Assembly (NCBI GenBank): GCA_000092065.1
Contig: CP000582.1
Source: Ostreococcus lucimarinus
Lineage: Eukaryota
Length of the DNA stretch: 64,000 nt
Reading direction: 5' to 3' (one strand)
The notes beneath the pieces are model-generated. The model searched no databases. It was given only the letters and a program-made list of their open reading frames with translations, and was not told the origin of the DNA. The position numbers were made by a program, and so were the translations under genes. Below, piece by piece: positions 1 to 64,000 of this stretch; position 1 is the first letter of the stretch, and the number at the start of each line of letters is the position of its first letter.

Positions 1-967
1 CTCAGTAAGTTGCATCAAGTTCAGGTCTGTGTTGTTCTCAATCTTGGATTCCGATTGTTGACTTTGTTTTATAGCACTTGCGAGAGTCTTTACTACAACG
101 AATTGTTCCTCCACTCATCACAATGTTGAACGCTGAACCTGAAATTCAGTATGTCGCGTTGACGAGTATAAGTGAAATCATGGATGCCTTTGTATTTCCG
201 TTTTTGCACAGTTACAAGGTAAAATGTTCGATTAATGGTCAGTCTAGGAACTGATGTGTGTTTAGGCATTTTTCTGCAAATACAATGACCCGTCGTATGT
301 GAAACATGAAAAGCTGAATATTCTCGTCAAAATTACGAATGAGAACAACGTTGGCGATATTTTACTCGAGCTCAAAGAATATTCTGGTGAAGTGGACATC
401 GAGTTCGCACGAAAAGCCATTCGCTCGATCGGTATATGTGCTCTATCTGTGCCTGAATATTCACAGGGGTGCGTTAGTGCACTTATGTGCATTATTGACA
501 CGAAAGTTAACTATGCCGTTCAAGAGGCGCTAGTTGTTTTAAAGGACATATTCCGGTGTTACCCAGATCGGTATGAGAGTGTGATATCGCGTTTATGTCA
601 ATCACTCGTGAGTTTGGATGAACCAGAAGCAAAGAAGTCTTTCATTTGGATTCTTGGCGAGTACGCTGATCGCATCGAAAATGTTATCGATTTATTGCGA
701 ACGTTTATTGATGGTGTCGATGATGAACCTGTCGTTGTACAGCTCCAATTACTTACATCGACAGTTAAGCTATTTCTTAAACGTCCGAGCGAAGAGTCAA
801 AATCCCTCGTTCAGCAGATGTTGATGTTTGCTACCCATGAAAGTGAGCACCCTGATCTTCGGGATCGGGCATATGTATACTGGCGGCTTTTAAGCCATGG
901 AGGCGATAAAGTGGCGAGTGTTGTCACCTCACACATGCCCGCCCCACAATGCAACCCTTCCTCGTAG
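1..967 (+). CDS. Beta-adaptin (AP complex beta large subunit), 5'-partial. Window starts inside the gene; one short intron at about 230..263. ORF ends at 967, at the trunk/hinge boundary.
   Basis: Translation of exons matches the AP-1/AP-2 beta trunk: EPEIQYVAL, FFCKYNDPSYVKHEKLNIL, LKEYSGEVDIEF, VNYAVQEALVVLKDIFRCYP, PDLRDRAYVYWRLLS. GTAAAAT..TTAG intron restores the frame. A convergent gene ends at 1044, so no room remains for hinge or ear. Confidence 0.8.
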
Positions 968-1043
968 TTGGCCTTTGTCAATACAAGCATGAAACTACTG
1001 TAGATCACATGATGGGGTATTCGCACACGCAGGTACTTTCGCA

Positions 1044-2501
1044 TCAAGTGACCGATATCAATAACTTGTTTTTTTTTCCAGCGGCAAGCAGTAGTAGCCT
1101 ACCGTCGACAATGTCTGCCATGCTCACGGTAGCTTCATCTGACAAGACTTTGATGTTGTTAAGTCGCAAACCTCCACCTTGAATCAACCGCTTGGTGGCG
1201 CCTTTGCTTGGCTGTAATCCTACGTCAACAGCCAGTTGGACTAGACTGATGCCTAACACCTGTTGCATAGGGAGTGTTGCGCTCGGTACGATACCTTCGA
1301 GAGCAGTCAACGCGGTCACATCTAAATCAGTGTCCGCCCCTGGTTTCAGCACAGAGGTAGCAGCCTGCGCTTCTTCCAACCCTTGCACTCCGTGAACAAA
1401 TCGCGTTACTTCCTCAGCGAGACGCCTTTGGACAGTGTTTACTATGTAGCTAGGCTGACTCATGTGACGTTCATACTCTAAAACTTCAGCCAACGGTACA
1501 AACGTCAGCATCTTCAGGAGTCGAATGACGTCAGCGTCATCTACGTTCAGGAAATATTGATAGAACTTGTAAGGTGACAATCTCGAAGTAGAAAGCCAAA
1601 TCGCGCCTTGCTCAGATTTTCCAAATTTTGTGCCATCTGACTTTAGTAGAAGTGGAAAGGTAAGCCCAGATACGTCAGCAGAAGGTTCAAGTCTGCGTAT
1701 AAGGTCGGTCCCAGCGGTGATATTCCCCCACTGGTCACTCCCACCGACTTGCACAGACACTTGTTGTGATCGGAGAAGATGAACGAAATCATAACCTTGC
1801 AAAAGCTGATATGCAAACTCGGTAAAGCTTATACCACTTTCACTTGAAAGTCGAGACTTGACACTATCTTTTGCAAGCATGGTCCCCAGGCGTGAATACT
1901 TCCCAACGTCCCGCAAGAAGTCCAAGAAACTCATGTCAGCATACCAATCGACGTTATTGACGACTATTAGCGACGTATCAGTGGAATTATCTGTCAATAT
2001 CTTTTGGATCGTGTTGGAAATAGCCTCAGCGTTCACAGCTATTGTAGTTTCGTCCAGTATAGGTCGCTCCGAAGACTTTCCAGAAGGATCGCCCACTCTA
2101 CCTGTCGCCCCGCCAATCAGAGCGACTGGTGTGTGTCCGTACTTCTCAAACCAGGATAGTACGACTATACCTAGCAAATTGCCAATGTGCAAGGAATCCG
2201 CAGTGGGGTCAAAACCACAGTAAACTCGTAAAGAACTCCCCTCCAACACTGACTCATTCGTGCACGCCTCGACGAGGCCACGTGCGTGGAGTTCGCCATA
2301 AACACTCGATTCGTACCTTTCATCGTCCGCAAACGCCCTCAATCGTGAATTCGGCAGCGAAGTAGCTCCGTGACCGCGGTCATTCGCTTGAGTCGTAAGT
2401 CTTCGTTGAGCAGAGCAAGTGCGGTGCGTCGAGAACGCTGAGCGAGCAAATACCGCGCGAAGCATGCCCGAGCCTCTATAAATATTCGAAAGAGCCATCG
2501 T
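1044..2501 (-). CDS. Tyrosyl-tRNA synthetase, bacterial/mitochondrial type, with a C-terminal S4 domain and an N-terminal presequence.
   Basis: HIGH-like motif YCGFDPTADSLHIGNLL; KMSKS-like KFGKSEQGAIWLS; S4-like C-terminus GGLRLNNIKVLSDE. N-terminus from MALSNIYRGSGMLRAVFARSAF is Arg/Ser-rich, as expected for a mitochondrial presequence. Start chosen at ATG 2501; the ORF itself extends to 2675. Confidence 0.85.
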   Translation of the reverse strand, partial: TMALSNIYRGSGMLRAVFARSAFSTHRTCSAQRRLTTQANDRGHGATSLPNSRLRAFADDERYESSVYGELHARGLVEACTNESVLEGSSLRVYCGFDPTADSLHIGNLLGIVVLSWFEKYGHTPVALIGGATGRVGDPSGKSSERPILDETTIAVNAEAISNTIQKILTDNSTDTSLIVVNNVDWYADMSFLDFLRDVGKYSRLGTMLAKDSVKSRLSSESGISFTEFAYQLLQGYDFVHLLRSQQVSVQVGGSDQWGNITAGTDLIRRLEPSADVSGLTFPLLLKSDGTKFGKSEQGAIWLSTSRLSPYKFYQYFLNVDDADVIRLLKMLTFVPLAEVLEYERHMSQPSYIVNTVQRRLAEEVTRFVHGVQGLEEAQAATSVLKPGADTDLDVTALTALEGIVPSATLPMQQVLGISLVQLAVDVGLQPSKGATKRLIQGGGLRLNNIKVLSDEATVSMADIVDGRLLLLAAGKKNKLLISVT

Positions 2502-7982: not shown

Positions 7983-8007
7983 AGCTCATTACACTTTCAA
8001 TTAATAT

Positions 8008-9027
8008 CTAGCTATGTCGCGTCATCTCAAATCTTGCTTGATGGAATAAGGATATCAGGTACAACGTTTGATTTTTCTCAGAGCAAGCGAAACTCAGAGA
8101 GTACTCAATATCTGAAAGTCCTCTGAGCAACCGTGCTCTCGTTCCCGCCGCCATATGCAGGGTAAGCAAAGACTCAGATAGAGGCTTGACGATGTCGACC
8201 AGCGCAAAGTTCTGAGTACATTTCAGACGATTAAAATGTTCAAAAGTCCCTTGGAGTGGTTCGTTGAGGAGAAATCGCAACAGCTCGTCCACTTGGAGCT
8301 GGCCAACATGACCTGTTATCAAATGAATTGCGTCATCTGTGACAACAGATGCCGACAGACTGACACTCTGAAGTATGTTGACGGTCTTCCGCATATCACC
8401 TTCGCCAAGTTTCTGGATTGTCGCAAGTGAGTTATCAGAAATACTGAAGTTTTCGCTATTCACGATATGCCGCAGTCGCTGCAACATATCTCCTGACGCA
8501 ATTGGAGAGAATCTAAATTTCGTGCACCTGCTTTGCAGCGCTGGGATGACTTTGGAGGCGTAATTACATATCAAACAAAAGCGCGTATGCTGAGTGTACT
8601 TTTCCATAATTCTCCGCAGCGCGAACTGTGCGTCTTTGGTCATGCTGTCACACTCGTCCATAATAACGAGTTTGAATGTCGTCGAAAAGGGTCGCATGGT
8701 CGATGCAAATGATTGGATTTCATCACGAACGACATTAATACCACGCGCATCGGAGGCGTTCAGTTCAAGAACCATATTAGAAAAGTTCAATCCATAAAGC
8801 TCTTTAGCGAGCGCCAAGATTGTGGACGTCTTTCCCGTTCCCGGGGGGCCGTGGAACAGTAAGTGCGGAAGCTGGCCGCCATCCGCAAACTTGTTGATGA
8901 CATCAACTATCGCTTTATGTGCAACCACTTCACTCAAACCCACTGGCCGATATTTTTCCGTCCACGGAAGAGCTCTATTCACGCTCGGATCGTCCACACA
9001 AACCATTTCGCCTGAAGCAGGGCGCAC
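8008..9027 (-). CDS. RFC5: Replication factor C small subunit (RFC5-type, 36-38 kDa AAA+ clamp-loader subunit).
   Basis: LPWTEKYRP, Walker A LLFHGPPGTGKTST, VLELNASD, Walker B KLVIMDECDSMT, SRC motif IPALQSRCTKFRF, sensor GDMRKTVNILQS. Collinear with RFC5 over the full length. Its first roughly 155 nt (8873..9027) are duplicated at 12117..12271. Confidence 0.85.
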   Translation of the reverse strand: MRPASGEMVCVDDPSVNRALPWTEKYRPVGLSEVVAHKAIVDVINKFADGGQLPHLLFHGPPGTGKTSTILALAKELYGLNFSNMVLELNASDARGINVVRDEIQSFASTMRPFSTTFKLVIMDECDSMTKDAQFALRRIMEKYTQHTRFCLICNYASKVIPALQSRCTKFRFSPIASGDMLQRLRHIVNSENFSISDNSLATIQKLGEGDMRKTVNILQSVSLSASVVTDDAIHLITGHVGQLQVDELLRFLLNEPLQGTFEHFNRLKCTQNFALVDIVKPLSESLLTLHMAAGTRARLLRGLSDIEYSLSFACSEKNQTLYLISLFHQARFEMTRHS

Positions 9028-9640
9028 GTCGGCGTCGTTCAGATATCTCGAAAGTATGTAATCAGCCAGCCAAAATCACTTTCGTTACCTTTGTGTCTCG
9101 AGCGTCTTCGGTGTTTGCTGTTGCCAAGCAGAACGCGCACGGTATGCAGAGGCTGAGTGCACGTATTCAAAAACTTGAAACCAACGAGTCCCGCGGTCTC
9201 AGCGGGGTCTGTACGTTTAGCGGGTTTATACATATCATATCGTGTTTCTTCGCGCACGGTATGGATTTACAACTGGGGCTTTCAAGCCCCTTTCTATTAC
9301 GCGAAATTACACGATATTTCGCGAAATCATATCAACATAGGTATTCTTGTAGTATAATACGATACTCATATTATAGGAGTAGAAGGCCTAATACTTATGT
9401 GTATTATCTGACACAGTTCTAATAACTCCACGAGAAATGAGCGCGAACCTGTGTTGGCAGGGCGTTCGTCGGCGGCGGCAGTGAGACGCGATAAACGTGC
9501 TGGCGGATATGAAGGATAACATTTCGGTCGGTCTCGACAAGGGACACGCGGTGACTAAGCGCGAGCTTGCCGCGAAGCCTGGTTCGCGTAAGGGGGTGTG
9601 TATTGCTTTCTACTTTCACGGGTTTTTTCTAACTGCGTGC
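8873..9640. repeat. Source copy of a 768-bp segment duplicated at 100% identity at 12117..12885. It contains the RFC5 5' CDS, the RFC5/RPL36 bidirectional intergenic region, RPL36 exon 1 and most of intron 1.
   Basis: The ORF track shows identical ORFs at 8919..9422 and 12163..12666, 9039..9257 and 12283..12501, 9157..9357 and 12401..12601, 9419..9619 and 12663..12863. Sequence is identical base for base from GCTGGCCGCCATCCGCAAAC to CTAACTGCGTGCGT. Confidence 0.9.
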
Positions 9641-10060
9641 GTAGCGTTGTGGTAAGCGTGTTGGAATGATTCGCGGCCTCATCCGGGAAGTGGCAGGCTC
9701 AGCACCTTACGAAAAGCGTCTCGTCGAACTGCTCAAGAACGGGCGGGACAAACGTGCCCTGAAGTTGGCAAAGAGAAAGGTGCGTACCATATCATTCTTT
9801 AGGGCTTTGCGCGCGAGAAGCACCCGTCGACCCCGTTCTCGATCTGCATTCGTGGAGTGGACTTATGAATCGATAATACTCTGCAGTGCATTGTTCATGG
9901 CCGTCTATTTTCGTCGATTGCCGTGCGCGTCCGCCGACTAACGACTGAACTTTCCTGCCAACAGCTTGGGACGCACCTGCGCGCCAAGAAAAAGCGAGAG
10001 GAAATGGGAAACCTTATGCGAAAGGCTAGCCGAAAAGCGCCTGCTCCCGAGAGCAAGTAA
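9509..10060 (+). CDS. RPL36: 60S ribosomal protein L36e. Three exons: about 9509..9595, 9645..9779, 9965..10060.
   Basis: [29 protein letters not shown] | [45 protein letters not shown] | [31 protein letters not shown]. Blocks GLNKGH.VTK and REV.G.APYE...ELLK..KDKRALK match L36e. Donors GTGTGT and GTGCGT. Confidence 0.8.
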
Positions 10061-10475
10061 AACGTAAATAGATTCAAGTTCGTAACTTCAATCGATTGTA
10101 GTTCGTCATTGAAGACTTCACAACTTTACAAAAGACGATCACTACCCCGACAGCAAACAAACCACGTTCACTGTCCATCACCGGCGACTCTTCGGTAAAC
10201 TCTCTCGCTACGATGAAGTAACTGGTGACACTGGTGTTCTACTAGCTCGTACGCATTCCTGAAATCACGAAAAACTAATCCTACAGCTGCCTCGTCTAAG
10301 ATCTCAGCTAGCCCCTCGAATCTCGAGCCGGCTCCACTGCGCGTCGTTCAAAGTTGCGCGACACAAACGAAGCGCTCTTTCTACGGAATCCTATACAAAG
10401 GCATCGACATTCACTCGACTTCGTACCATCATCGTACGCAACTCCTGTTTCGCGTGTTTCTGGAACCTAGTCAAG

Positions 10476-11484
10476 ATGATTCCGGGGGAAGAAACCGGTG
10501 CTTCAGTGACAGTGGCACGTTTAGAGGACGAAACTATCATTTTCGATTTGAAAGGAGTTGATGTCAGCCTAGCAAACGCACTCAGGCGGCTAATGATAGC
10601 GGATGTCCCAACTGTTTCAATTGACTTAGTCGAGGTGATAGAAAACTCCTCTGTTCTGTGTGATGAGTTCTTGGCACACCGCTTGGGTCTGATCCCCCTT
10701 GACAGCACAAAAGCTTCAGAACTCGTGAAGCCTTACGAGTACACTGGAGACGATGATACCGCAACAGATGTGCACTTGGAACTCAATGTGCGATGTCAGA
10801 GCGACCAGACAAGGGACGTCACGAGCGACGATCTGATCTCACACGACGAAAGAGTAAAACCAGTGAGCTTTGGGGGGACAGGTGGTGGTTCTGCGAAGTC
10901 AGGCGGGATTCTGATAGCAAAACTACGCAAAAACCAGCAGTTATCGTTGAAATGTATCGCAAGAAAAGGCACTGGTAAGGATCATGCCAAGTGGTCCCCA
11001 GTCGCTACGGCCGTGTTTAAGTACACTCCCTTGATTGACATCAATCACGGCCTCCTGAACTCGCTAAATGGTAAGAGCCAGACTAGAATTCTTTACCACA
11101 ACTTTAAACGTCACAATGCAGGACCGGAAAAGGCAGCGATCGTGGAGAGCGATCCATCCAAAATGTTTAAATATGACGCCGACACGGATACTTTTACTCT
11201 CACCTCTCCAGAGTCATGTACTTACGATGGTGAAGTTATGAAGAAGGTAAGATTCAACATTCGTTTCATCTATATAAATGAACTCTTGACCTTGACAGGT
11301 AAACGAGCTCGGAAAGCCTGGATTGATTGATGTGCGGCCCGGTCTGGACTGTTTTACTTTCATCGTTGAGTCAACTGGAGTATTGAAAGTTGAGGAGGTT
11401 GTTCTACAGGCAGTGCATATTTTACAAAGTAAACTGGATACTATAGGAGTAAGTTCGTGTTTTGACAAATTAGAAATTCAATAA
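10476..11484 (+). CDS. RPAC1: RNA polymerase I/III shared subunit AC40 (RPAC1). Two exons: 10476..11246 and 11299..11484.
   Basis: LANALRRLMIADVPTVSIDLVEVIENSSVLCDEFLAHRLGLIPL, GKDHAKWSPVATA, then after a GTAAGA..ACAG intron GLIDVRPGLDCFTFIVESTGVL. Collinear with AC40/RPB3-family dimerisation and insert domains. Confidence 0.8.
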
Positions 11485-11579
11485 TTATGTGTCGTAGGGT
11501 GAACTTGAAACGATAGAAAGTGACTCATTCTAGGTTTGTAATTGTTACTGCGAACTGCCATAGGTCACACAAAAGCCAC

Positions 11580-12116
11580 TCACAGTGAGTCGTTTACTCT
11601 CGTCAAAGCATTCAAAGTTTCAACCATGTGTCTGCTTTTCATTTCTTCCGCGTATCGACGACTTTCGTGTACGTCCATTCGAAATGGGCAGAACGAGTAA
11701 CAATATTTGAATTGCAGATAAAAGACTGCAGGTAATAGTGGTGAAAGTATAAAGTCAACCACGGGGCGAACCGGAAGTAGTGGTGTCAACAGTTTGATTG
11801 CTTCACTATTCAATCGTCCCAATCCCTGCACGACTGCCGTGCGTACGATTCGACGACGATAGAATCGCTGCAAGATCTCAGAAATTTCGGACCGTGAGTT
11901 GAGTTTAGACAACATTTGTGCCAACATGTAACCATCTTCGAATGCCAGACCAGTTCCTTGACCAATGTTTGGCATAGTTGCGTGACACGAGTCTCCAAGC
12001 AAGACGACATTTCCTTTCGCCCAGCTTTTCCTTATACTTGGCGTTCGATCGAGCAAGTCACGTTGGATTATACCCCCCTCGTCCGTGGCAGCTATCAGGT
12101 TCCTTACTTCAGGTGC
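11580..12116 (-). pseudogene. 3' fragment of the zeaxanthin-epoxidase-like monooxygenase gene. It carries the original C-terminal coding sequence and the first copy of the 386-bp duplicated block. The inserted segment separates it from the rest of the gene.
   Basis: Minus ORF 11580..12056 encodes ...SWAKGNVVLLGDSCHATMPNIGQGTGLAFEDGYMLAQMLSKLNSRSEISEILQRFYRRRIVRTAVVQGLGRLNSEAIKLLTPLLPVRPVVDFILSPLLPAVFY... This is the same sequence as residues about 340-425 of the upstream ORF, then a different C-terminus. Confidence 0.6.
11730..12116. repeat. 386-bp block that is perfectly repeated at 12886..13272. The two copies flank the inserted segment.
   Basis: Identical minus ORFs at 11810..12010 and 12969..13169, and identical plus ORFs starting 11916 and 13075. 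Sequence is identical from CTGCAGGTAATAGTGGTGAAAG to CCTTACTTCAGGTGC. Confidence 0.9.
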
Positions 12117-12885
12117 TGGCCGCCATCCGCAAACTTGTTGATGACATCAACTATCGCTTTATGTGCAACCACTTCACTCAAACCCACTGGCCGATATTTT
12201 TCCGTCCACGGAAGAGCTCTATTCACGCTCGGATCGTCCACACAAACCATTTCGCCTGAAGCAGGGCGCACGTCGGCGTCGTTCAGATATCTCGAAAGTA
12301 TGTAATCAGCCAGCCAAAATCACTTTCGTTACCTTTGTGTCTCGAGCGTCTTCGGTGTTTGCTGTTGCCAAGCAGAACGCGCACGGTATGCAGAGGCTGA
12401 GTGCACGTATTCAAAAACTTGAAACCAACGAGTCCCGCGGTCTCAGCGGGGTCTGTACGTTTAGCGGGTTTATACATATCATATCGTGTTTCTTCGCGCA
12501 CGGTATGGATTTACAACTGGGGCTTTCAAGCCCCTTTCTATTACGCGAAATTACACGATATTTCGCGAAATCATATCAACATAGGTATTCTTGTAGTATA
12601 ATACGATACTCATATTATAGGAGTAGAAGGCCTAATACTTATGTGTATTATCTGACACAGTTCTAATAACTCCACGAGAAATGAGCGCGAACCTGTGTTG
12701 GCAGGGCGTTCGTCGGCGGCGGCAGTGAGACGCGATAAACGTGCTGGCGGATATGAAGGATAACATTTCGGTCGGTCTCGACAAGGGACACGCGGTGACT
12801 AAGCGCGAGCTTGCCGCGAAGCCTGGTTCGCGTAAGGGGGTGTGTATTGCTTTCTACTTTCACGGGTTTTTTCTAACTGCGTGCG
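12117..12885. repeat. Inserted duplicate of 8873..9640 (RFC5 5' end, bidirectional promoter, RPL36 exon 1), placed inside the ZEP-like gene.
   Basis: 100% identity to the source segment. Junctions are sharp: ...TACTTCAGGTGC|TGGCCGCCATCC on the left and ...AACTGCGTGCGT|GCAGGTAATAG on the right. Confidence 0.9.
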
Positions 12886-14076
12886 TGCAGGTAATAGTGG
12901 TGAAAGTATAAAGTCAACCACGGGGCGAACCGGAAGTAGTGGTGTCAACAGTTTGATTGCTTCACTATTCAATCGTCCCAATCCCTGCACGACTGCCGTG
13001 CGTACGATTCGACGACGATAGAATCGCTGCAAGATCTCAGAAATTTCGGACCGTGAGTTGAGTTTAGACAACATTTGTGCCAACATGTAACCATCTTCGA
13101 ATGCCAGACCAGTTCCTTGACCAATGTTTGGCATAGTTGCGTGACACGAGTCTCCAAGCAAGACGACATTTCCTTTCGCCCAGCTTTTCCTTATACTTGG
13201 CGTTCGATCGAGCAAGTCACGTTGGATTATACCCCCCTCGTCCGTGGCAGCTATCAGGTTCCTTACTTCAGGTGCCCAATCCTTAAAAGTGTTTGTGAGC
13301 GTTTTCTTCGATGGCGTAGACGTGGGTGTGCGAGGTAGCGCCTTTACAAATGCATACCACTGCACTCGACCAAAACGATCTGGACAAACCACAAAATAGT
13401 GATCAGGTCCAATGAAGGCACTATACCCAAGATCGAAATAATCTGAAGAGTTCGAAATCGGCAGACCGCTGTAAAGTTTGAAGCCAGTGTATGAAGCTAT
13501 CGCAAAACGATCATTAACTGTACTTGAAACTTCATCGAACATTTGCGAACGCACCGTACTCCAAATACCATCTGCGCCTATTAAGATGTCGCACGACAGT
13601 GTTTCTCCATTCTCAAGAAAAACTTCTACTCCTTTGTCTGATTCGAAGTACCTTGATACTGCAGTCCCCATTCTCACTACTTCTCTATCGGTAGAGACTC
13701 GATTTAATTCTTCTAGCAAAACGGATTGAAGATCCGATCTATCGATACAAATCGAAAACGGTAGACTGTCCTCGCATGGTATTTGTGTTATGGCATCAAA
13801 TGTAAACATCCATTCGGAGGTGATGCCGTCTCGGATCCCACTCTTTGTAGACCAAAACGGCCGACTAGCTGCTCGTATATTCTTCGCGAGTTCATCACTG
13901 ATAGCATGCGCAACACCCATGCCATTGCTAGCGAGCTGAATGGGACCACCTAACGGTTTATACTCTTTTGTTCTCTCCAGCACAGTAACGTTCATTCCCT
14001 GCTGAACGAGACATATCGCAGCAAATAGCCCCCCAAGACCTCCTCCGGCTATGATGATGTCGACATTTGCCTTCAT
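12799..14076 (-). CDS. Zeaxanthin-epoxidase-like FAD-dependent monooxygenase. The N-terminal roughly 397 aa are intact. The reading frame then runs through the second 386-bp block into the inserted segment and ends in an unrelated tail.
   Basis: Rossmann DIIIAGGGLGGLFAAICL...NVTVLER. The ZEP/salicylate-hydroxylase-type motif GDSCHATMPNIGQGTGLAFEDGYMLAQML matches plant ZEP GDS.HAMQPN.GQGGCMAIED. After ...ILSPLLPA the ORF continues as [14 protein letters not shown]..., which is translated promoter DNA of the duplicate. Confidence 0.7.
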   Translation of the reverse strand: MKANVDIIIAGGGLGGLFAAICLVQQGMNVTVLERTKEYKPLGGPIQLASNGMGVAHAISDELAKNIRAASRPFWSTKSGIRDGITSEWMFTFDAITQIPCEDSLPFSICIDRSDLQSVLLEELNRVSTDREVVRMGTAVSRYFESDKGVEVFLENGETLSCDILIGADGIWSTVRSQMFDEVSSTVNDRFAIASYTGFKLYSGLPISNSSDYFDLGYSAFIGPDHYFVVCPDRFGRVQWYAFVKALPRTPTSTPSKKTLTNTFKDWAPEVRNLIAATDEGGIIQRDLLDRTPSIRKSWAKGNVVLLGDSCHATMPNIGQGTGLAFEDGYMLAQMLSKLNSRSEISEILQRFYRRRIVRTAVVQGLGRLNSEAIKLLTPLLPVRPVVDFILSPLLPARTQLEKTRESRKQYTPPYANQASRQARA

Positions 14077-14899
14077 GTCGGTGCAAGCGCGGACGCCCGC
14101 ACGCGGGCTTTTAAAATCGCGCGGCCATCCTTTTCCGGACGACCTTTGATAACACTGGCGGCTATTTTGGTCGAGCTTCACGTGCCTCGCCACACGTGTT
14201 TTCAGCATCATGAGGCAGCAAATACTGACCAGTGCGAGATGCGAGTCCTAAAGGGGTCAGTCTACGCACAACGAAGAACTGATGTCCCTCAGTACCCACG
14301 GCGCACGCTGCCGCGTGACTTCTCGACGGTCAACCGGTGTAATATTCCCACATGCGATATCACCCATGTGAGATATTGTCCGTCGCGGTTTATGGTCGCA
14401 TTTTATACTTCAGTCCATCAGTTGATGCGGTCAATTTGTATCATAACATGGAAAAATAGAGTGAAAAATCGTGTTGGAAATGTCACAGCGGATAACGATC
14501 CACTGAGGCAGGCGATACTCGTCACAGCGAGCGCGCTTCACCTCAGACGGCCCCACGCAGACGCAAACCTATCGTACAAAATGCTTACCACGTGTTCCTT
14601 CACACGCTTCAGTGTACCGGTAGCTAGAGAGCTCTGCACTTCGCGGCGCTCCCAGCGCACCGGTTCCCGCGTTGCGCGTGCGAAACCCTCCGCCGCGTCC
14701 AACTTCGAACTAAATAACGCTATGAAAGCTACCGCAACTCTAGGTGCGTATACAGTAATTGTGGGATTTTTTTGACGTTCTTACGCCTATCCACGTGCAT
14801 TCGCACTGTGGCGACTCGGAAATCTGCGTGCCTAGTGGCTGACCGCGTTTTAATCCGATCCGAACAGTTGCGACCCTCCCGTCGCAAGCGGCGATTGCC

Positions 14900-18805: not shown

Positions 18806-20959
18806 ATGGCCGATGAAGCATACACGCGAGAGCGGGAGCTTATACGAGAGTTTCTTCAGACATTCGAAGGGAGAGACGGCAGCCCACATTACCGGCGCGC
18901 GCTGCAAAAAGTTTTGGACCGCCAAAGTTGTTGCGTGGACATCGATTTGCAGGACGTGAAAGAGTTTTGCGGGGCACTTGAAGAGCGCGAGGAACTCTTA
19001 GACCGGATCACGTCGAATTGCAAACGCTACGCTACTTTATTTGCGGAAGAAATTGACGGATTGATAAAAAACCTGGCGTCTTCGAGTGCTTCACTCTCTG
19101 AAGTCGGTGAAGATGATCTAGACGTGTTTCTGCAGCGGCATTCCGATGATATTGGCGAGCGAAGCGAAAATCCAGCACCCGAAGTGTTACGACGTGCATT
19201 TGATGTTTTCTTCAAACCCCTGAAAGGAACTAAATCTCTCAAGATGCGCGACATACGGGCTAATATGATAGGGCACTATGTCACTTTCAAAGGCATGTGT
19301 ACACGGATAACTGATGTGAAGCCGCTCATCAAGGTAGCCTGCTATACATGTGAAGGTTGTGGACACGAGTACTTCCAAGAAATCAATGGCAACGAATTCA
19401 TCCCGAAGCAGTTCTGCCAATCGCAAACTTGCAACAAAAAGTTTGCACTATTCATTGAAACACGGGCGTCAAAATTTGCAAAATACCAGGAGGTCAAAGT
19501 GCAAGAAATGTCAGAAGACGTGCCGATCGGTCACGTTCCTAGGTCAATGTCGATATCACTGATCGGTGAAATGACTAGAAAGCTTGCTCCGGGAGATACA
19601 ATTGATATCAGTGGAGTTTTCCTACCACGTCCAAGTGTTGGATACTTGGGCAACTCAAGTCTTGTTTCGACCACATACTTGTATGCAATGTCGGTCACAC
19701 CGCATAAGTCGAAGACAACTAGCTCGGATGCGACTCCGGAGGTGCTGGAGAGGCTGCATAAGCTCAGAGAAACCCCAGACATATACACGCACTTAGCAAA
19801 ATCTATTGCCCCTGAAATTTATGGCCACGTTGACATAAAAAAAGCTCTTTTACTGTTGCTATGTGGTGGAGTAACGAGAACACTCCAAGATGGTGTCAAG
19901 ATTCGTGGTGATGTTCATGTTTGTCTTATGGGCGATCCCGGTGTTGCCAAATCCCAGCTGTTGAAACAGATAGTCTCTATTGCAACTCGCGGAGTTTATA
20001 CAACTGGGCGGGGCAGCAGTGGTGTAGGTCTTACAGCGTCAATTCAAAGAGATAACATTACAAGCGAATTAGTGCTAGAAGGTGGTGCGCTCGTACTAGC
20101 TGATAAAGGTATATGCTGCATAGACGAATTCGATAAAATGGAAGAAAGCGATCGAACGGCTATACATGAAGTCATGGAGCAGCAAACCGTCAGTATCGCG
20201 AAAGCTGGGATAACCACAACTCTAAATGCACGAACAACAGTCCTCGCAGCAGCAAATCCGGCATTTGGTAGATACAATACAGCTGCTACACCCCAGGAGA
20301 ATATTAATCTACCGGCGGCACTCCTAAGTAGGTTTGATTTGATGTGGCTTATTTTGGACGTTCCTGATCCCGACTCTGACATTGAACTGGCTCGCCATGT
20401 TATGAGCGTACATCGCGAAGGTCGCCCACCGTCCACAAGTTTTGATCCAGTCTCAACCTCTGAACTGCGAGCTTACATAGATGTCGCGCGGCATTTTGAC
20501 CCTTACATCCCGGAAGACCTTGCAGACGACATCGCCAGTGCATATGCCGGTATTCGTCAGGTTGAAGATGAAGCTGGAAGTGAGGCGACTGGTTATACCA
20601 CCGCTCGTACGCTACTATCTATCATTCGACTTGCAGAAGCTCTCGCACGGCTCCGTTGGGCACCTATTGTCTCCGGGAAAGATATCGAACAGGCACTCAA
20701 CCTGATGAAGATGTCGAAGGCGAGTCTAGAAATTCACAAGTCGTCAACAGCACTACGCTCGGATCCCGTCGAGAATTTGTATTTGCTTCTACGGAACTGG
20801 GCTAGTGATCACTCGAATCAATTCATAAGCGCTTCTATAGTTCGTCAGCTGGCGACGAAAAGTGGCTTATCAGGTGTCCTTGATGCTTGCATGAGTGAGT
20901 ATACGGCTCTCGGGGTGTGGGTTATGGACAGTGACAGCAACATAACGTTCGTAGACTAG
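18806..20959 (+). CDS. MCM7: DNA replication licensing factor MCM7, single exon, 717 aa.
   Basis: Zinc finger YTCEGCGHEY...QFCQSQTC, Walker A GDPGVAKSQLL, Walker B/arginine finger CCIDEFDKM...SDRTAIHEVMEQQTVSIAKAGITTTLNARTTVLAAANP, and MCM7-specific N-terminal blocks. Confidence 0.9.
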   Translation: MADEAYTRERELIREFLQTFEGRDGSPHYRRALQKVLDRQSCCVDIDLQDVKEFCGALEEREELLDRITSNCKRYATLFAEEIDGLIKNLASSSASLSEVGEDDLDVFLQRHSDDIGERSENPAPEVLRRAFDVFFKPLKGTKSLKMRDIRANMIGHYVTFKGMCTRITDVKPLIKVACYTCEGCGHEYFQEINGNEFIPKQFCQSQTCNKKFALFIETRASKFAKYQEVKVQEMSEDVPIGHVPRSMSISLIGEMTRKLAPGDTIDISGVFLPRPSVGYLGNSSLVSTTYLYAMSVTPHKSKTTSSDATPEVLERLHKLRETPDIYTHLAKSIAPEIYGHVDIKKALLLLLCGGVTRTLQDGVKIRGDVHVCLMGDPGVAKSQLLKQIVSIATRGVYTTGRGSSGVGLTASIQRDNITSELVLEGGALVLADKGICCIDEFDKMEESDRTAIHEVMEQQTVSIAKAGITTTLNARTTVLAAANPAFGRYNTAATPQENINLPAALLSRFDLMWLILDVPDPDSDIELARHVMSVHREGRPPSTSFDPVSTSELRAYIDVARHFDPYIPEDLADDIASAYAGIRQVEDEAGSEATGYTTARTLLSIIRLAEALARLRWAPIVSGKDIEQALNLMKMSKASLEIHKSSTALRSDPVENLYLLLRNWASDHSNQFISASIVRQLATKSGLSGVLDACMSEYTALGVWVMDSDSNITFVD

Positions 20960-20961
20960 TT

Positions 20962-22992
20962 CTATGCCAAATCTACTCTTAGAGAAACAATCTTCTGAGC
21001 ATCACTCTCTGATAGTTTCCACGAAGACTGATGCCTCATATCAACCAGATAATTTTCAACTTCGTTTTGAGTCTCTGCACTCAATACGACACTAAGTTGT
21101 GTAAGACGTGCAAAATTTTCTCTCACTCGAAAACTGCTCGCACCCGATAGCCCAGAAATCATTACTCGTAGTTCTCGCTCGAACTTTAAAGCACCTAAAT
21201 GATTAAAGCTTAAACGCGTTTTCACAATATTTTCCAGTCGTGTCGATAAGCCTTCGCTTGCGAGCTGGATAAAGAGCTCAGAACTTTCCTTGATCATCAC
21301 TTTTGTCGCCACGCGGAAATGGTGCAAGAGAAAGACCAATATATCACTTACCCACGATTCAGTACGCTCAACAGTCTGGTAAGCTTCTTCTGATATTATG
21401 TAGCTTCCGCGTGCGAACTGCTCACATACAGTCGATAACTGATTCAGGCGTTCACGTACCAAGTTAGACACACATGAAACATGCCAGCTGTTGAGCTCAT
21501 CATATAAAATTCTCAAACTAACAAGGCTATTCGTTAGTTCACTCGTATCAAAACCTGTCGTGAAAATCTTAGACATCATGCACTCCACATCCTTTATGAG
21601 CTCTTGTATGCGAATCGACATGGTACTTGTGGCATTCATGGCTAAGACTGCGTTGTGCACACCGGCGGTAACATTTGATGTGCTACTCATGCCCTTATTT
21701 TCGATCCAAAATACCTCTGCAATAACCTCTACACTCTGATTCAGATACACTTTCATCGTTTGTTCTGAGAAATCTGTGAGAAACTTGTTCACCGTGCGTA
21801 AAATTGTTGCGATGATATGTGGCTCTGTCAACGCAAAAGCCCGCCTTGTACTCCGACCAATAACAAAAAAAACGTCATCCAATGAAACATTTTGTGCTCC
21901 ATCATGGTGCGCGTTATACGCTTCATAGAACGTTTGCATACTCACCTTGAAGTGTTTTTCTTCAAGTTTCACATAATATTCTGCGAGCGTGTGCAGCACT
22001 GGAAAAACTTCGCGGCAGTCTTGACTAACCACCGTGTGAAGCGGCGGATTGTCATACTCCATTGTTAACGGAAACTTCACAAATATCACATGCTGTGCTT
22101 TACATATTCTGTTGACCAGGACGATATCTTCCACGGCTGTGTCTAACTGTACCAAGTTATCAAATTTTATCGTCAAATTGTCCAGAACACAAGTTTTCAA
22201 GTGGTCATCATATTCGACCAAAAATTTTTCAACTAGCGAAGACCAAGTACCGACAATCGCGGCAAAAACAAAACTAACCGCTTCAGAAGGCTTTCTTTCT
22301 TTCGAATATGTTTGCAGTTGCGACAAAAAGCTTCGGATAGTCTCGTACAAGGTATTGAGAGGCAACATGCTCACTCTCGCTGGTATTTGCCCCCTGTCCA
22401 AATTCATATTTTGCGCATTTTCGTATCTTGCAACCATAGTCTCGCGAATTGACGTAGTGACGGCATCTTCGACAACGTGATGGAGCTCTATTCTAACCAA
22501 TTTATCCACTATATGGAGAACATTCACAAGATCATCAACCACGAGTGCTGACTGACAATAACTCGACGTAGCATTCCGAACAAAGCAGTGTACACTAGTC
22601 AAGGAACTCTCAATGTCAATGTCGGTTTTTGAGCGCACGTTTGATCGCGACTTATGTAATCTAAGCAAATCTTCGTACGCATTCAACGCTTCGATTAAGT
22701 CCCCTTCGTTTGTTTTCTCTGCTAATTTCTCTGTGAGTATAAGAAGTTCCTGGTTGAATTGCAATATCTGGCGAACACGCAGTGCGTTCAAGAGTGCATT
22801 TGAGAACTTATGCAGATCTTTCGTGATAGCTTGGCCAGTACTGCTACGCTGTACATGTTTGCCTTCCCTTGTTGCGCTATGCTCAAAGTAAAGCTCGTCG
22901 AGCCACGCTGACTGGCGATCTTTCTCCATGTAGTCGTCTTGTATACTTTTAGGGTCGACGTATCCAATCTTGCGATAGATGCGTCGTCCCAA
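20962..22992 (-). CDS. COG4: Conserved oligomeric Golgi complex subunit 4 (COG4)-like.
   Basis: C-terminal RENFARLTQLSVVLSAETQNEVENYLVDMRHQSSWKLSESDAQKIVSLRVDL aligns with the COG4 C-terminal domain (RDKFARLSQMATILNLE...[20 protein letters not shown]). A long helical body lies upstream. The N-terminus may have further exons. Confidence 0.7.
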   Translation of the reverse strand: MGRRIYRKIGYVDPKSIQDDYMEKDRQSAWLDELYFEHSATREGKHVQRSSTGQAITKDLHKFSNALLNALRVRQILQFNQELLILTEKLAEKTNEGDLIEALNAYEDLLRLHKSRSNVRSKTDIDIESSLTSVHCFVRNATSSYCQSALVVDDLVNVLHIVDKLVRIELHHVVEDAVTTSIRETMVARYENAQNMNLDRGQIPARVSMLPLNTLYETIRSFLSQLQTYSKERKPSEAVSFVFAAIVGTWSSLVEKFLVEYDDHLKTCVLDNLTIKFDNLVQLDTAVEDIVLVNRICKAQHVIFVKFPLTMEYDNPPLHTVVSQDCREVFPVLHTLAEYYVKLEEKHFKVSMQTFYEAYNAHHDGAQNVSLDDVFFVIGRSTRRAFALTEPHIIATILRTVNKFLTDFSEQTMKVYLNQSVEVIAEVFWIENKGMSSTSNVTAGVHNAVLAMNATSTMSIRIQELIKDVECMMSKIFTTGFDTSELTNSLVSLRILYDELNSWHVSCVSNLVRERLNQLSTVCEQFARGSYIISEEAYQTVERTESWVSDILVFLLHHFRVATKVMIKESSELFIQLASEGLSTRLENIVKTRLSFNHLGALKFERELRVMISGLSGASSFRVRENFARLTQLSVVLSAETQNEVENYLVDMRHQSSWKLSESDAQKIVSLRVDLA

Positions 22993-45776: not shown

Positions 45777-46280
45777 ATGCGCTTTCAACTTGCTGTCACG
45801 AAACTAGTTCGTCGTGCACGTCGCCTGCAGCGCATTTCTCACGTACGAATCGATTCGCAACCGTTCATCACGTTACAGTTGTCCTTTAAGGATGAGCGAG
45901 ATCACGCTCGCCCTCGTTCCATCAGCCAGAACCGGTTCAGCACTTCAGAATCGAAGGAGTACGTCTTCAACGACGTCGCAAACTGTACTTTGCAGAATAT
46001 TCTCGATAGTATTGAAGCTTTGATAGACAAGGAACGGCTGGACATGGATATATCACTCGAAACTGGCGTGTTGACTATCGATTGCGGAGAAAACGGGGTC
46101 TTTGTGTTGAATAAGCAGACCCCGAATAGACAAATTTGGCTCGCCTCACCCGTCAGCGGCCCTTTCAGATATAATTACACACCATCCGGTGAATGGTTGA
46201 GCACACGAGATGACTATTCTCTACAAAGCCGTCTAAAATATGAGTTAGAGTCTATATATAAACTGGAGGTCAATTTCTAA
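45777..46280 (+). CDS. FXN: Frataxin (CyaY family) with a mitochondrial presequence.
   Basis: VFNDVANCTLQNILDSIEAL, GVLTIDCGENGVFVLNKQTPNRQIWLASPVSGPFRYNY, EWLSTRDDYSLQSRLKYEL. Collinear with the frataxin fold. The N-terminus MRFQLAVTKLVRRARRLQRISH is Arg-rich, as expected for a mitochondrial presequence. The stop codon overlaps the 3' end of the convergent TGS1 gene. Confidence 0.8.
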   Translation: MRFQLAVTKLVRRARRLQRISHVRIDSQPFITLQLSFKDERDHARPRSISQNRFSTSESKEYVFNDVANCTLQNILDSIEALIDKERLDMDISLETGVLTIDCGENGVFVLNKQTPNRQIWLASPVSGPFRYNYTPSGEWLSTRDDYSLQSRLKYELESIYKLEVNF

Positions 46281-47215
46281 GGTCGAAAAGTATGGATTGT
46301 AAAAAGTACAACGTATTGGCTTTCACACGGCTCTTGACTTCGTGAGACTCTATCTTGGAGAAAGTGAGGGGCAAGACCACATAGTTTATAGACGCACTCA
46401 CCTGAAAGTGTCCTGTGCAGTTATTCATAATATCATCGAAGTTAATATTGCGCGGTAGGAAGCACACAGTATTGTTTGACGCTGCCAGTGATCTCGTTAT
46501 CACTTCAGTGCCTCGAAGTCCGCCAATCCATTTTTGCGAGAGCAGAAACTCTTCTCTCACGGAATAAGATGGCCCTCCCCAGGGTGGGGACAAAAATATA
46601 AAGTCTACTCGAGAACTGCTCATCAACTCCAGAAAGTTACAGCATATAAACTCGATGTTCTGATGTACTGACGTGGTTGACGCATTATGTTGAGCCTGTA
46701 TCAGTGGAATGTAAATACGCGCCAACTCAGTCGCGATTAATAACACTTACCATTTTCAACTTTTCGCTATCGATGTCGCACGCCAATACTTTACACCCGA
46801 CTTTAGCGAAGGCAATTGAGTTCCCACCCACACCGCAGAAAGCGTCCAAGACTACGGGGGGCAAGTCTGAACGCCGCTTTCGCTGGAAACATTCGACGCA
46901 CAATCTAGCTTGATGGTCGGCTATAATTATTGGAGTTGTCGAGTACCACGCTTCCGTATCCAATAGCATGCCCATTTCCCACTCAGAGAAGAGATCGTAG
47001 CGTTGTCGCCAGTATTTGGAAAGTGGGGCAGTATAAGTTTCAGTTCCAACTCGTGTTTGAACGTCGACTTCGTAAGGGATTTCACGAGAGAAGTCCATCC
47101 ACTCATTCAATACAACCAATATGTGAACTAGCGTCAGAGACAATGCGTTCAATTCATCCCCTCGAACGCGCCGTGCGTCAGACTTTGACCGGTGCGACTG
47201 CACTTCGTGTCCCAT
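46270..47215 (-). CDS. TGS1: Trimethylguanosine synthase (TGS1; snRNA/snoRNA cap hypermethylase). Two exons with an intron near 46735..46760.
   Basis: YWRQRYDLFSEWEMGMLLDTEAWYSTTPIIIADHQA, SAM-binding VVLDAFCGVGGNSIAFA, VLACDIDSEKLKM|..., FICCNF, VDFIFLSPPWGGPSY. These match TGS1 motifs I-IV. Confidence 0.75.
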
Positions 47216-52648: not shown

Positions 52649-53976
52649 ATGTCCATGAGATCAGTGCGATCCAACACCCGACGTAGCAGTACGACCCAAT
52701 CTCTTTCGGTACGTTTCTAACGCCGTGAATATGAAGTCAAACTCACTCATCGACACGCACATGACACAGGGTACCAGTGCAAACTTGCTAAGCGTAGTGG
52801 CGGGAACGCAGCAGGCTCGATCTGTTGACGGTGTTCGAGTATTACAGCGTGAAGGTACTCTTGGCATTCAATATCTCGTGAGCCTCGAAGACGAGACGAG
52901 AGTATGGTGATGTCACGTACTGCTGTTTCGACTTGACACTAACACAGTTGTAGGCTGCCCAACGAATGTGTAGCCGACGATTTGAGGAGTCAGTACGGTC
53001 TAGAGTGGTGGAACGCGTGTCGACAGGTGCGTAAACCAGCCCGCAAATGATGCCAGCATTATCCTGAAAGAAACCATAACCAGGGTGACCAAGCTACCCT
53101 AGAGAAGTTCTTGAGTACAAGCTCCGGGACTTTGCTGCACTCCAAGGACTCAAAACAGAGAAGGTATATTGCTGATGGAAAAGTGAAGCGCATCTAAAAT
53201 AAATACTGTCTAGCCCCATTCATTTTCTTGCAGGGGTTGGCGACACATTCGTTCTTGACCGACTGTTGAAAGAAGGCGCAGATGTAAACGCCCAGGTATG
53301 CTGCCCATTTTAATTATTTCTAATTTGATCTCAGAATCTTAGGACGTCGATGGCTACACGGCTGCGCACCTCGCTGCTGGGTACATGAGACTCGACTCCC
53401 TACGGTGCTTACTTAGTGCAGGAGCTGATGCAGAACTCGAGGATAACACAGGTCGCTCGGTACGCTCGACACACTTAGTGCACTTTCTTGCTTCTTATCT
53501 ATTCACTCAAAGGTGCAAGGACTAGTGCAGACCCTTCTTTCGAATACGCCAGTAACAACGACGACGTATTCGCGCAGAGTGGCACTAGAGTCAATGTTAT
53601 CTGCCATAGAGGCCCATATATATGAAGAGATTGTCCCTGTCGCGCTACTTTCAAAGCGCTTGTCAAACGGCACTGCTGAATACCTGGTGAGATGGATCGA
53701 CGGTGAGGCTGCAAGCTTATATTAAACACCATGTACTAATACTAGATCAGACGTTGATGATATGTGGGTACCGGAGGGAGATATCGCGGATGATGTCATC
53801 CAGACATTCGAAGAGAACTTAGAGCTCACAAAAGGGGAGCTATTGACGCAGAAAGAAGACGAGAGTAATGGACAACGTAGGCTCATTCAGGTGAGGCTAA
53901 TTATTGTTTGGGGTTAATCAGACAAATTGATTCCTTATTTCAGTGGCATGATTCGCAAATCTTGACATGGATCTAA
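52649..53976 (+). CDS. cpSRP43: Chloroplast signal recognition particle 43-kDa protein (cpSRP43). Ankyrin repeats flanked by chromodomains; about nine exons.
   Basis: Transit peptide exon MSMRSVRSNTRRSSTTQSLS. Chromodomain 1 GTLGIQYLVSLEDETRVW; LEWWNACRQ. Ankyrin repeats GDTFVLDRLLKEGADVNAQ|DVDGYTAAHLAAGYMRLDSLRCLLSAGADAELEDNTG. Chromodomains 2 and 3 AEYLVRWID|DVDDMWVPEGDIADDVIQTFEE...|WHDSQILTWI. This CD-Ank-CD-CD architecture matches Arabidopsis cpSRP43/CAO and is specific to the green lineage. Confidence 0.8.
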
Positions 53977-55377: not shown

Positions 55378-56283
<906 letters not shown>

Positions 56284-57051: not shown

Positions 57052-57145
57052 ATCAAATAGGCTCTGCCTGCGCAGGTTCGAATCCTGCCGTCCGCGCACT
57101 GAACAAATGCGGACGTGCCCGAGTGGTTAAGGGGTTTGACTCGAA
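57052..57145 (+). tRNA. tRNA-Ser(CGA): Circularly permuted tRNA-Ser(CGA) gene. The 3' half (57052..57096) precedes the 5' half (57109..57145), with a 12-nt linker.
   Basis: 3' half is A-TCAAA (positions 38-43), Ser-type variable arm TAGGC-TCT-GCCTGC, T-arm GCAGG-TTCGAAT-CCTGC, acceptor 3' strand CGTCCGC, discriminator G. Linker is CACTGAACAAAT. 5' half is GCGGACG TG CCC-GAGTGGTTAA-GGG G TTTGA CTCGAA, ending at position 37 with anticodon CGA. Acceptor strands pair 7/7, anticodon stem TTTGA/TCAAA pairs 5/5. Near-identical to human tRNA-Ser-CGA. The break lies at the canonical 37/38 intron site. Confidence 0.65.
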
Positions 57146-62340: not shown

Positions 62341-62759
62341 TGTCAGCTGTTTGAGAGTCGACAAGCGCTCGGTCGCGCGCGCTCGCGTAACGACGAAGTA
62401 GAGTGGCGCTTCAGGGTTTCCACGGATAGCGCGACACGATGATAGGGTCCCTCGCCTTTTTATGAGATGAATGATATGATATATCGTCATGATGCTTGCA
62501 TGGCGATCTAAGCAATATTGTATGGATGTAACCAAGAAATTAAAGAAATTCTCACTTTCAACAAGTTCTACAAGTTCTTGTGCGCGAGGCGCACTACTTT
62601 CATTAGGCTGCGATTGGCTTTGGAGAGAAAGTTTATATCGTCGTTTAGCATAATTCAACGGCCATCTTGATTTCGTGACTGCGACCGAGCACTTTTCTTC
62701 AAAAAAGTAGTTCATAAAATGCACTTTGTAGAACGCGTTGCCCCGTCACCCTCAGTACC

Positions 62760-64000
62760 TTAGTCTTCAAAGGGTGCAAATATAACGCAAGAATTGTGGC
62801 CACCGAAACCAAAGGAATTACTAATGGCGGCGGTAACCGTGTGCGCCTTCTTTTCGTTTGCACACGTATCGATCCCTTCAACTATCGGTTCCAGTTCGTT
62901 TTGGTTCAGAGTCGGATGCAGCATGCCAGTCTTTATCGCCATGATACAAGCGATGGCTTCCATCCCCCCTGCAGCACCGAGACAATGTCCGATCATTGAT
63001 TTGGTTGCATTCATTTTGACATTTTGTACGTCTTTGAATACCTTGCGAACAGCGTTGACTTCTGCGACGTCGCCGACAAGAGTTGAGGTGGCGTGTGCGT
63101 TGATGTAGTTTATATCTGACACGGAGATACCAGCATCCTTGATGGAAAGCTCTATGCACGTGGATACTCCAAGACCATCGGCTCGTGGATCAGTCATATG
63201 ATGCGCGTCACAGGTGATGGCTCCACCAAGATACTCTGCGTGGATGCGAGCACCACGCTTCTTTGCGCTTTCCAACGTCTCCATGATGAGGACACCAGCA
63301 CCTTCACCCATCACGAATCCATCTCTAGACTTGTCCCAGGGTCGAGAGGCCCCCTCCGGATCATCATTATTTTGGCTGAGAGCTCGACAAGCGACGAAAC
63401 CACCCAGACCAACAGGAATGATGGGTGCTTCAGAGCCACCGGCGATCATGATTTCTGCGTCGCCGTTCCTGATGTGATTGGCTGCCGCGTGAAAGGCGTA
63501 ATTTGCCGTTGCGCAGGCGGTCGAGATAGAATAATTCGGTCCCATAAAACCTTTTTCAATAGCAAGCATTGCACCGCCCATGTTTGTGATGGCATAAGGA
63601 ATGAAAAATGGAGTTATCTTCTTCGGCCCCTTCTCCACGAGTGCTTTCACACCATCCTGGAAAACAGTGAGGCCACCCATACCGCTGCCAACGAGAACAC
63701 CGACGCGTTGTTTATCGAGGTTTTCGAGTGCGGCAGCATCCAGACCTGCATCTTCCAAAGCTTTGTTACCAGACACGAGAGCATAACGAAGACAGTCGTC
63801 AAGTCGTCTATCGTTTTTCTTGTCGATGTAACCCTCGCTGTCGAAATTGCGAATTTGTGCAGCGAATTTCGTTGGAAAGTCACTCGTATCGAATCGATCG
63901 ATCGGCGCAACGCCACTTTGTCCAGAAAGAAGCTTATCGTAGTATGCGGTGTAGTCGTTACCAAACACAGAACATAACCCCATTCCCGTAATCACGACTC
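62760..64000 (-). CDS. KAS: 3-oxoacyl-[acyl-carrier-protein] synthase (KAS I/II, FabF/FabB type), 3' portion. The gene continues past the window end.
   Basis: ITGMGLCSVFG, active-site SISTACATANYAFHAAANHI, HAEYLGGAITCDAHHMTDP, NAHATSTLVGDVAEVNAV, SMIGHCLGAAGGMEAI, SNSFGFGGHNSCVIFAPF. No start codon context is visible before the window edge. Confidence 0.85.
   Translation of the reverse strand, partial: VVITGMGLCSVFGNDYTAYYDKLLSGQSGVAPIDRFDTSDFPTKFAAQIRNFDSEGYIDKKNDRRLDDCLRYALVSGNKALEDAGLDAAALENLDKQRVGVLVGSGMGGLTVFQDGVKALVEKGPKKITPFFIPYAITNMGGAMLAIEKGFMGPNYSISTACATANYAFHAAANHIRNGDAEIMIAGGSEAPIIPVGLGGFVACRALSQNNDDPEGASRPWDKSRDGFVMGEGAGVLIMETLESAKKRGARIHAEYLGGAITCDAHHMTDPRADGLGVSTCIELSIKDAGISVSDINYINAHATSTLVGDVAEVNAVRKVFKDVQNVKMNATKSMIGHCLGAAGGMEAIACIMAIKTGMLHPTLNQNELEPIVEGIDTCANEKKAHTVTAAISNSFGFGGHNSCVIFAPFED

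Follow-up and report, generated by a model that had tools for sequence, protein, structure and literature searches.

A 64-kb window of Ostreococcus lucimarinus DNA very probably located in the low-GC outlier region of chromosome 2

Origin of the window

The stretch of DNA analysed here (positions 1 to 64,000, hereafter the window) is, with very high probability, 64 kb of nuclear DNA of Ostreococcus lucimarinus CCE9901 from within BOC1, the low-GC (guanine plus cytosine) sub-region of the big outlier chromosome (BOC), chromosome 2. An initial annotation, made from the letters alone, had proposed the nucleus of a Mamiellophyceae species and a low-GC outlier region. This proposal is borne out by three protein identities of 100%, the GC content, the introns, the gene content, and the permuted tRNA genes. 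The placement and the three genes whose products were compared with named CCE9901 entries are as follows.

1 to 64000, no strand: very probable segment of the O. lucimarinus CCE9901 chromosome 2 low-GC region (BOC1, candidate minus mating-type (MT-) locus), from GC, three identical proteins, and environmental contigs
18806 to 20959, plus strand: MCM7, single exon, identity to XP_001416209.1 and Pfam MCM domains
28155 to 30355, plus strand: chloroplast Hsp70 (cpHsp70), N-terminal transit peptide, one intron at 28407-28519 (113 nt), 695-aa spliced product equal to XP_001416211.1
42827 to 43580, minus strand: casein kinase II (CK2) beta, two introns (47 and 59 nt), 215-aa spliced product equal to XP_001416461.1

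The protein comparisons identify the species. MCM7 of the window is identical at 717/717 residues to the O. lucimarinus CCE9901 entry and belongs to the 90%-identity cluster which holds it. With chloroplast Hsp70 and casein kinase II beta, three window proteins are 100% identical to CCE9901 RefSeq entries. The next named relatives of MCM7 are those of O. tauri (72%), O. mediterraneus MMETSP0929 (68%), and Micromonas pusilla (56%); streptophyte MCM7 proteins reach about 50%, and the named close relatives are all Mamiellophyceae. The MCM7 comparison suggested by the initial annotation hence gave its best matches in Ostreococcus and Micromonas, with none better outside Chlorophyta. The lineage is settled to the species and, all but certainly, to the strain. 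Moreover, four environmental contigs of the same haplotype (L001-L004) match the window at 99.3-99.99% nucleotide identity.

The GC content points to the compartment. It amounts to 46.9% overall, close to the roughly 48% first claimed, and to 44-50% in each 2-kb bin. The genome of O. lucimarinus is reported to have a GC of 0.60, and its big outlier chromosome (CH02) shows a sharp 9-17% drop which delimits the candidate mating-type locus (PMC8557840). Mamiellales genomes other than Bathycoccus exceed 59% GC, and every genome has a big outlier chromosome with BOC1 as its contiguous low-GC sub-region (PMC3491373). BOC1 is characterised by AT-rich introns of 40-65 bp at about 1.5 per gene, highly expressed housekeeping genes, and no collinearity among species (PMC3491373). 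The window lies 13 points under the published genome value (the 0.60 of PMC8557840), with the boundaries of the low-GC block outside it. The low GC, together with the gene content and the intron pattern, therefore leads to BOC1. Compared with BOC1 of the Mamiellales (O. lucimarinus chromosome 2, O. tauri chromosome 2, Bathycoccus chromosome 14, Micromonas chromosome 1/2), the window is alike in GC drop, introns, and gene content as well as in shuffled gene order and transposable-element polymorphism, and no substantive difference was noted.

A similar GC value would be expected on an ordinary chromosome of a Mamiellophyceae genome which is low in GC overall and has no outlier region. Bathycoccus prasinos, for instance, has a genome-wide GC of 48%, near that of the window. 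However, this origin is extremely improbable, as it is ruled out by the exact identity of three proteins to O. lucimarinus CCE9901. In addition, the window has at least 1.4 introns per gene, about ten times the 0.15 per gene of Bathycoccus genes outside the BOC (PMC3491373). The small outlier chromosome of O. lucimarinus (chromosome 18, 149 kb, 53% GC; PMC3491373) is likewise low in GC, but there is hardly any chance that the window derives from it. MCM7, chloroplast Hsp70, and CK2 beta are carried on a record of 895,087 bp, against 149 kb for chromosome 18. Furthermore, the genes on the small outlier chromosome are mostly species-specific, without known function, and poor in introns, whereas those of the window are conserved housekeeping genes with many introns. 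Record size and gene content rule out this origin.

Some points weigh against the placement in the candidate mating-type region of chromosome 2. We infer the chromosome and the position therein from GC, the size of the reference record, and the literature, and the genome-wide values of GC and intron density come from papers. A duplication in the window (12117-13275, see below) is absent from all environmental contigs, so it may be a strain-specific change or an assembly artefact. No RWP-RK (MID-like) motif was found in the six frames of the window, a negative compatible with the locus, as an RWP-RK gene is reported elsewhere in the BOC of CCE9901 (PMC8557840). Finally, the mating-type function of BOC1 is a hypothesis in the literature too, where the region has the status of a candidate.

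The compartment, its small introns, low GC, and candidate mating-type role, as well as the permuted tRNA genes, are already published. The reading of the raw sequence was able to assign the window to a highly specific, unusual compartment of the genome, and adds no new biology. Small leads are a 1.16-kb duplication truncating a FAD-monooxygenase gene, two polymorphic families of miniature inverted-repeat transposable elements (MITEs), and the presence of permuted tRNA genes inside the outlier region.

Small introns

Gene models were predicted with a purpose-written Viterbi model, using codon log-odds from 16 long open reading frames (ORFs) and donor and acceptor matrices from 26 curated introns. 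The intron length prior was 44-76 nt with a maximum of 160 nt; the resulting counts are approximate, and the models by themselves are no proof that long introns are lacking. In these models, 62 introns were predicted, with lengths of 45-80 nt plus one of 113 nt and a median of 52 nt. Their GC is 0.39 versus 0.47 for the coding sequence (CDS). Independent support is available for 17 introns, which were validated by the exact or near-exact spliced proteins of cpSRP43, Hsp70, RPB3, proteasome beta2, CK2 beta, and psbX. Among these, 15 measure 47-69 nt and the other two 113 and 196 nt. Overall, the window is estimated to hold about 60-70 introns, mostly of 45-80 nt, AT-rich, and of the spliceosomal GT-AG type.

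The initial annotation had described nearly every gene as interrupted by introns of 45-75 nt. The length range holds for most introns (15 of the 17 validated ones and the predicted median) but not for the two long validated introns. The frequency was overstated: introns occur in 29 of the 44 gene models, leaving about one third intron-free. The absence of introns is certain for MCM7 and apparent for COG4, RFC, and others. The density of about 1.4 or more introns per gene is comparable to the roughly 1.5 published for BOC1 (PMC3491373), the density outside BOC1 being taken from the literature.

Two differences from published BOC1 introns were found. In Bathycoccus, BOC1 introns have no detectable splice motifs (PMC3491373). 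In contrast, the window introns carry canonical GT[A/G]NG...YAG motifs, in a set that was partly selected on such motifs. In the curated introns, the donor sites read (A/C)AG at the end of the exon and GT[A/G]NGT at the start of the intron, and the acceptors read YAG; the same partial selection applies to these consensus sequences. Secondly, published BOC1 introns measure 40-65 bp, whereas two validated window introns are longer. These are located at 28407-28519 (113 nt, cpHsp70) and 33171-33366 (196 nt, psbX). The 196-nt intron is not AT-rich, with a GC of 0.51, which suggests that two classes of introns occur side by side in the region.

Circularly permuted tRNA genes

Both tRNA genes of the window are circularly permuted, as the initial annotation had recognised. 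No tRNA in genomic order was detected within the window by ARAGORN or Rfam (gathering and E-value thresholds), a result expected of these tools because the genes are permuted. The genes were found by a search for the T-loop motif, followed by the requirement of a T arm with the 3' acceptor strand, a short spacer, and the 5' acceptor strand with the D arm, all on the same strand. Running ARAGORN at a lowered threshold over every possible re-join was uninformative, nearly all junctions being scored.

57052 to 57145, plus strand: permuted tRNA-Ser(CGA), 3' half at 57052-57096, 12-nt spacer, 5' half at 57109-57145; rejoined, a perfect cloverleaf of 82 nt
23167 to 23274, minus strand: permuted tRNA-Leu(UAA), 3' half at 23274-23230, 25-nt spacer, 5' half at 23204-23167; rejoined, a cloverleaf of 83 nt

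Both junctions lie at position 37/38, and the rejoined halves are recognised by ARAGORN as perfect tRNA-Ser(cga) and tRNA-Leu(taa). The pair is already known. Permuted tRNA genes were described in Mamiellophyceae (Maruyama et al. 2010; reviewed in PMC3978253), and four are published for O. lucimarinus, including Leu(TAA) with a 25-bp and Ser(CGA) with a 12-bp spacer, both of type II with the junction at 37/38 (PMC3978253). The window genes match these entries exactly, without any difference. O. lucimarinus has 44 tRNA genes, four of them permuted (PMC3673656); the other two permuted ones are Ser(TGA) and Cys(GCA). O. tauri has six permuted tRNA genes and Bathycoccus seven. Hence, two of the four permuted genes fall within this 64-kb window, where they are the only tRNA genes.

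In the minimum-free-energy fold of the Leu precursor, the leader AATACGA pairs with the trailer TCGTATT beside the anticodon stem, giving a structure resembling a bulge-helix-bulge motif. For the Ser(CGA) precursor, the fold showed no clear helix between leader and trailer. Permuted tRNAs would presumably be matured by cleavage at the bulge-helix-bulge motif and then pass through a circular intermediate. Such a circular RNA intermediate has been shown only in Cyanidioschyzon merolae (PMC3978253).

The permuted genes also occur in related loci. The tRNA-Leu gene is found at the same position in the relatives L005 and L006 (L005 at about 6900; MCM7 71% identical), with a spacer of 11 nt. A pattern scan of metagenome contigs gave 11 candidates passing the filter among the matches listed, of which 9 are permuted tRNA-Ser(CGA) genes. 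Of the listed pattern matches, most had acceptor halves that were not complementary; these were dismissed as ordinary tRNA genes lying side by side. Among the matches listed, 8 of the 9 Ser(CGA) orthologues lie in DNA of 38-45% GC (L016, L029, L038, L056, L061, L092, L105, L121), and the remaining one lies in Micromonas-like DNA of 63% GC. Homologues of window genes, in other orders, accompany 5 of these 8 listed low-GC loci (CAF1, an RRM protein, proteasome beta2, TFIIA-gamma, cpSRP43, and CK2 beta).

As far as the literature search reached, no mention of the BOC1 context of permuted tRNA genes was found. It is a tentative and rather doubtful proposal that these genes are long-term residents of the Ostreococcus outlier/mating-type region and that their placement is non-random. 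The rearrangement-prone and recombination-poor BOC could be a site where tRNA permutation arises or persists.

Plastid marker genes

The initial annotation had based the green lineage on nuclear psbX, cpSRP43, and plastid Hsp70. The first and the last of these turned out as described, and the second did so in part.

33101 to 33687, plus strand: nuclear psbX with a bipartite presequence, exons at 33101-33170, 33367-33430, and 33483-33687, introns of 196 and 52 nt, Pfam PsbX match and protein P0282
52649 to 53976, plus strand: cpSRP43 (first chromodomain, ankyrin repeats, second chromodomain (CD1-Ank-CD2), and a short C-terminal tail), nine exons and eight introns of 47-61 nt, 303-aa product found exactly in the protein collection, match to PDB 3UI2

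The psbX product matches Pfam PsbX with an E value of 7e-17 over 38/38 model positions. Its spliced precursor of 112 aa equals, except for one residue, an independent protein of 114 aa from the environmental sequence collection (P0282). The presequence begins with a basic part rich in S, T, K, and R and continues with a hydrophobic stretch ending in AEA directly before the mature peptide. A basic hydroxylated part followed by such a stretch makes the presequence bipartite, and the claim of a nuclear psbX with a two-part presequence is therefore upheld.

For cpSRP43, a CD-Ank-CD-CD architecture had been claimed. Residues 49-276 match the structure of Arabidopsis cpSRP43 (PDB 3UI2) in one stretch with an E value of 2.7e-35, covering CD1-Ank-CD2. 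In Pfam, Ank matches and one weak Chromo match (18.6 bits) were obtained. Thus, the architecture stands up to CD2, but the third chromodomain (CD3) is not confirmed because only about 25 residues are left beyond CD2. It seems to be truncated or absent. The C-terminal end is encoded at 53944-53976, and cluster members of 296-322 aa exist.

The chloroplast Hsp70 corresponds to an entry annotated as "Heat Shock Protein 70, chloroplast" (XP_001416211.1). Its N-terminal extension of about 70 residues is rich in S, T, R, and A and contains no hydrophobic signal peptide, in agreement with the claimed transit peptide without signal peptide.

Candidate mating-type role

The strain CCE9901 was assigned to MT- in a study reporting two haplotypes that are deeply diverged and show trans-specific polymorphism (Benites et al. 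2021, PMC8557840). According to the literature, the low GC would result from suppressed recombination, under which GC-biased gene conversion no longer offsets an AT-biased mutation pressure, and the region would represent a candidate MT- mating-type haplotype. Compared with this haplotype (PMC8557840), the window belongs to the same low-GC block but is without the RWP-RK gene.

A second PsbX protein bears on the two-haplotype picture. P0283, from an MMETSP transcriptome of O. 'lucimarinus', has an identical mature peptide but is only 61% identical over the aligned part, which covers 74% of the query, and its presequence is very different from that encoded at 33101-33687 of the window. It is probably the MT+ counterpart (gametolog) of the window gene, and the diverged presequence in a second 'lucimarinus' strain fits gametologs. 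The strain MMETSP0939 is reported to be of the opposite mating type (PMC8557840), and we infer that P0283 derives from it.

Alternatively, the low GC, the many introns, and the shuffled gene order of BOC1 might have a cause other than mating type, for instance that it is a recombination-cold or spatially insulated chromosomal domain or a species-barrier region. In Ostreococcus, no mating has ever been observed, and the mating-type assignment is indirect (PMC8557840), the biological reason for the region was once called "obscure" (PMC3491373), and the window contains no sex-determination gene. Nevertheless, this explanation is considered unlikely, if still a serious competitor, in view of the two deeply diverged haplotypes with their reported trans-specific polymorphism (PMC8557840) and of the divergent psbX presequence from the second strain, which agrees with two haplotypes.

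Gene content and gene density

The prediction retained 44 protein-gene models in addition to the 2 tRNA genes. Not all exons were captured, and curated reading gives about 46-50 genes. The density of about one gene per 1.3-1.4 kb, from the models and the curated reading, agrees with the value of about 1.4 kb given by the initial annotation. Rab, dyskerin, and the truncated FAD-monooxygenase are predicted models for which no exact match was found in the protein collection.

The long ORFs, identified with Pfam, encode TyrRS, an organellar-type PheRS, MCM7, COG4, Hsp70, an MFS transporter, acetyl-CoA synthetase, an SF1 helicase, and WD40 proteins. The housekeeping content comprises MCM7, RFC, RPB3, an RPB9-like protein, eIF6, TyrRS, PheRS, four proteasome subunit genes, H2A, and TFIIA-gamma. 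To these are added dyskerin, Gar1, TRM13, CK2 beta, Rab, cpHsp70, psbX, cpSRP43, and KAS. Further genes with supporting evidence, and the overlap of two of them, are listed here.

20962 to 22929, minus strand: COG4, convergent with MCM7, the stop codons 2 nt apart, Pfam COG4_C
10476 to 11533, plus strand: RPB3 (RNA polymerase II subunit), three introns of 49-52 nt, 301-aa spliced product found exactly in the protein collection, Pfam match
38580 to 39401, plus strand: proteasome beta2, one 69-nt intron, 250-aa spliced product found exactly in the protein collection, Pfam Proteasome
46270 to 46280, both strands: 11-nt convergent CDS overlap between frataxin (plus) and a cap-methyltransferase-like gene (minus), from the ORF list, Pfam, and gene models

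Overlapping ends of convergent CDSs had been presented as a general trait. One such case was found, between 45777-46280 on the plus strand and 46270-47215 on the minus strand, but the remaining convergent ends are 2-180 nt apart.

Gene order among Ostreococcus lineages

Each of the five Ostreococcus-type lineages examined retains the convergent MCM7-COG4 pair (5/5). The relative represented by L005 and L006 is collinear with the window over H2A, TFIIA-gamma, MCM7, COG4, an Asp/Arg hydroxylase, ELO, and the proteasome gene. Three other lineages, one O. tauri-like and one O. mediterraneus-like among them, keep only the pair itself around MCM7. Its other neighbours in these lineages are ABC1 and AP-mu, a DEAD helicase, or Adaptin_N; an Adaptin_N gene is found in the window too, 18 kb from MCM7. 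The GC computed for eight related loci is 44-49%. The shuffling of gene order around MCM7 is as described for BOC1.

Duplicative insertion in the FAD-monooxygenase gene

The segmental rearrangement noticed at 11.7-13.3 kb by the initial annotation is real in the sequence, as seen from two exact repeats and from the empty site in four environmental contigs.

12117 to 13275, no strand: duplicative insertion of 1,159 bp splitting the FAD-monooxygenase gene, exact repeats of 772 and 390 bp, absent from L001-L004

The 772 bp of the first repeat, 12115-12886, reproduce 8871-9642 exactly, a segment which comprises the RFC 5' end and its upstream region. The 390 bp of the second, 12886-13275, likewise reproduce 11727-12116. 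The arrangement corresponds to a tandem duplication of 8871-12116 in which the second copy is missing 9643-11726, with microhomology of 1-2 bp at the junctions. As a consequence, the gene for a FAD-dependent monooxygenase is cut: the ORF at 12799-14211 terminates within the duplicated sequence, and the authentic C-terminal part is encoded at 11580-12116. The insertion yields a second partial RFC 5' end and a chimeric ORF of 470 aa, which was found on no contig of the collection.

All four environmental contigs spanning the site (L001-L004) join 12116 directly to 13276. Even L003, which is 99.99% identical to the window elsewhere over 22 kb, is without the insertion. The insertion may have arisen very recently in this strain, or it may be an artefact of the assembly. 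The source of the window could also be a different assembly or an O. lucimarinus strain almost identical to CCE9901, or else the CCE9901 reference itself with a local mis-assembly at 11.7-13.3 kb. In favour of this, L003 would encode the same proteins, the duplication is seen solely in the window, and both repeat pairs are 100% identical, which fits a very recent event or an artefact. On the other hand, all three proteins compared with named CCE9901 entries match exactly, and such an origin appears quite improbable. In either case, the placement of the window in the low-GC outlier region of O. lucimarinus is unchanged.

MITE-like elements and variation among wild contigs

Two MITE-like elements show presence/absence polymorphism among the wild contigs of the same haplotype. 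The first is present in the window.

25741 to 25882, no strand: MITE-like element of 142 bp with perfect 19-bp terminal inverted repeats (25744-25762 and 25861-25879) and a TA target-site duplication

This element is shared with L003, and L001, L002, and L004 have a clean empty site. An inverted copy occurs in L001 and L002 (L001 1487-1644), at the equivalent of about position 9236, where the window is empty. The second element, of about 270 bp with terminal inverted repeats of about 70 bp, occurs in L001 and L002 only (L001 14289-14557), at a site corresponding to 23093/23094 of the window. The permuted tRNA-Leu gene lies about 70 bp away from this insertion.

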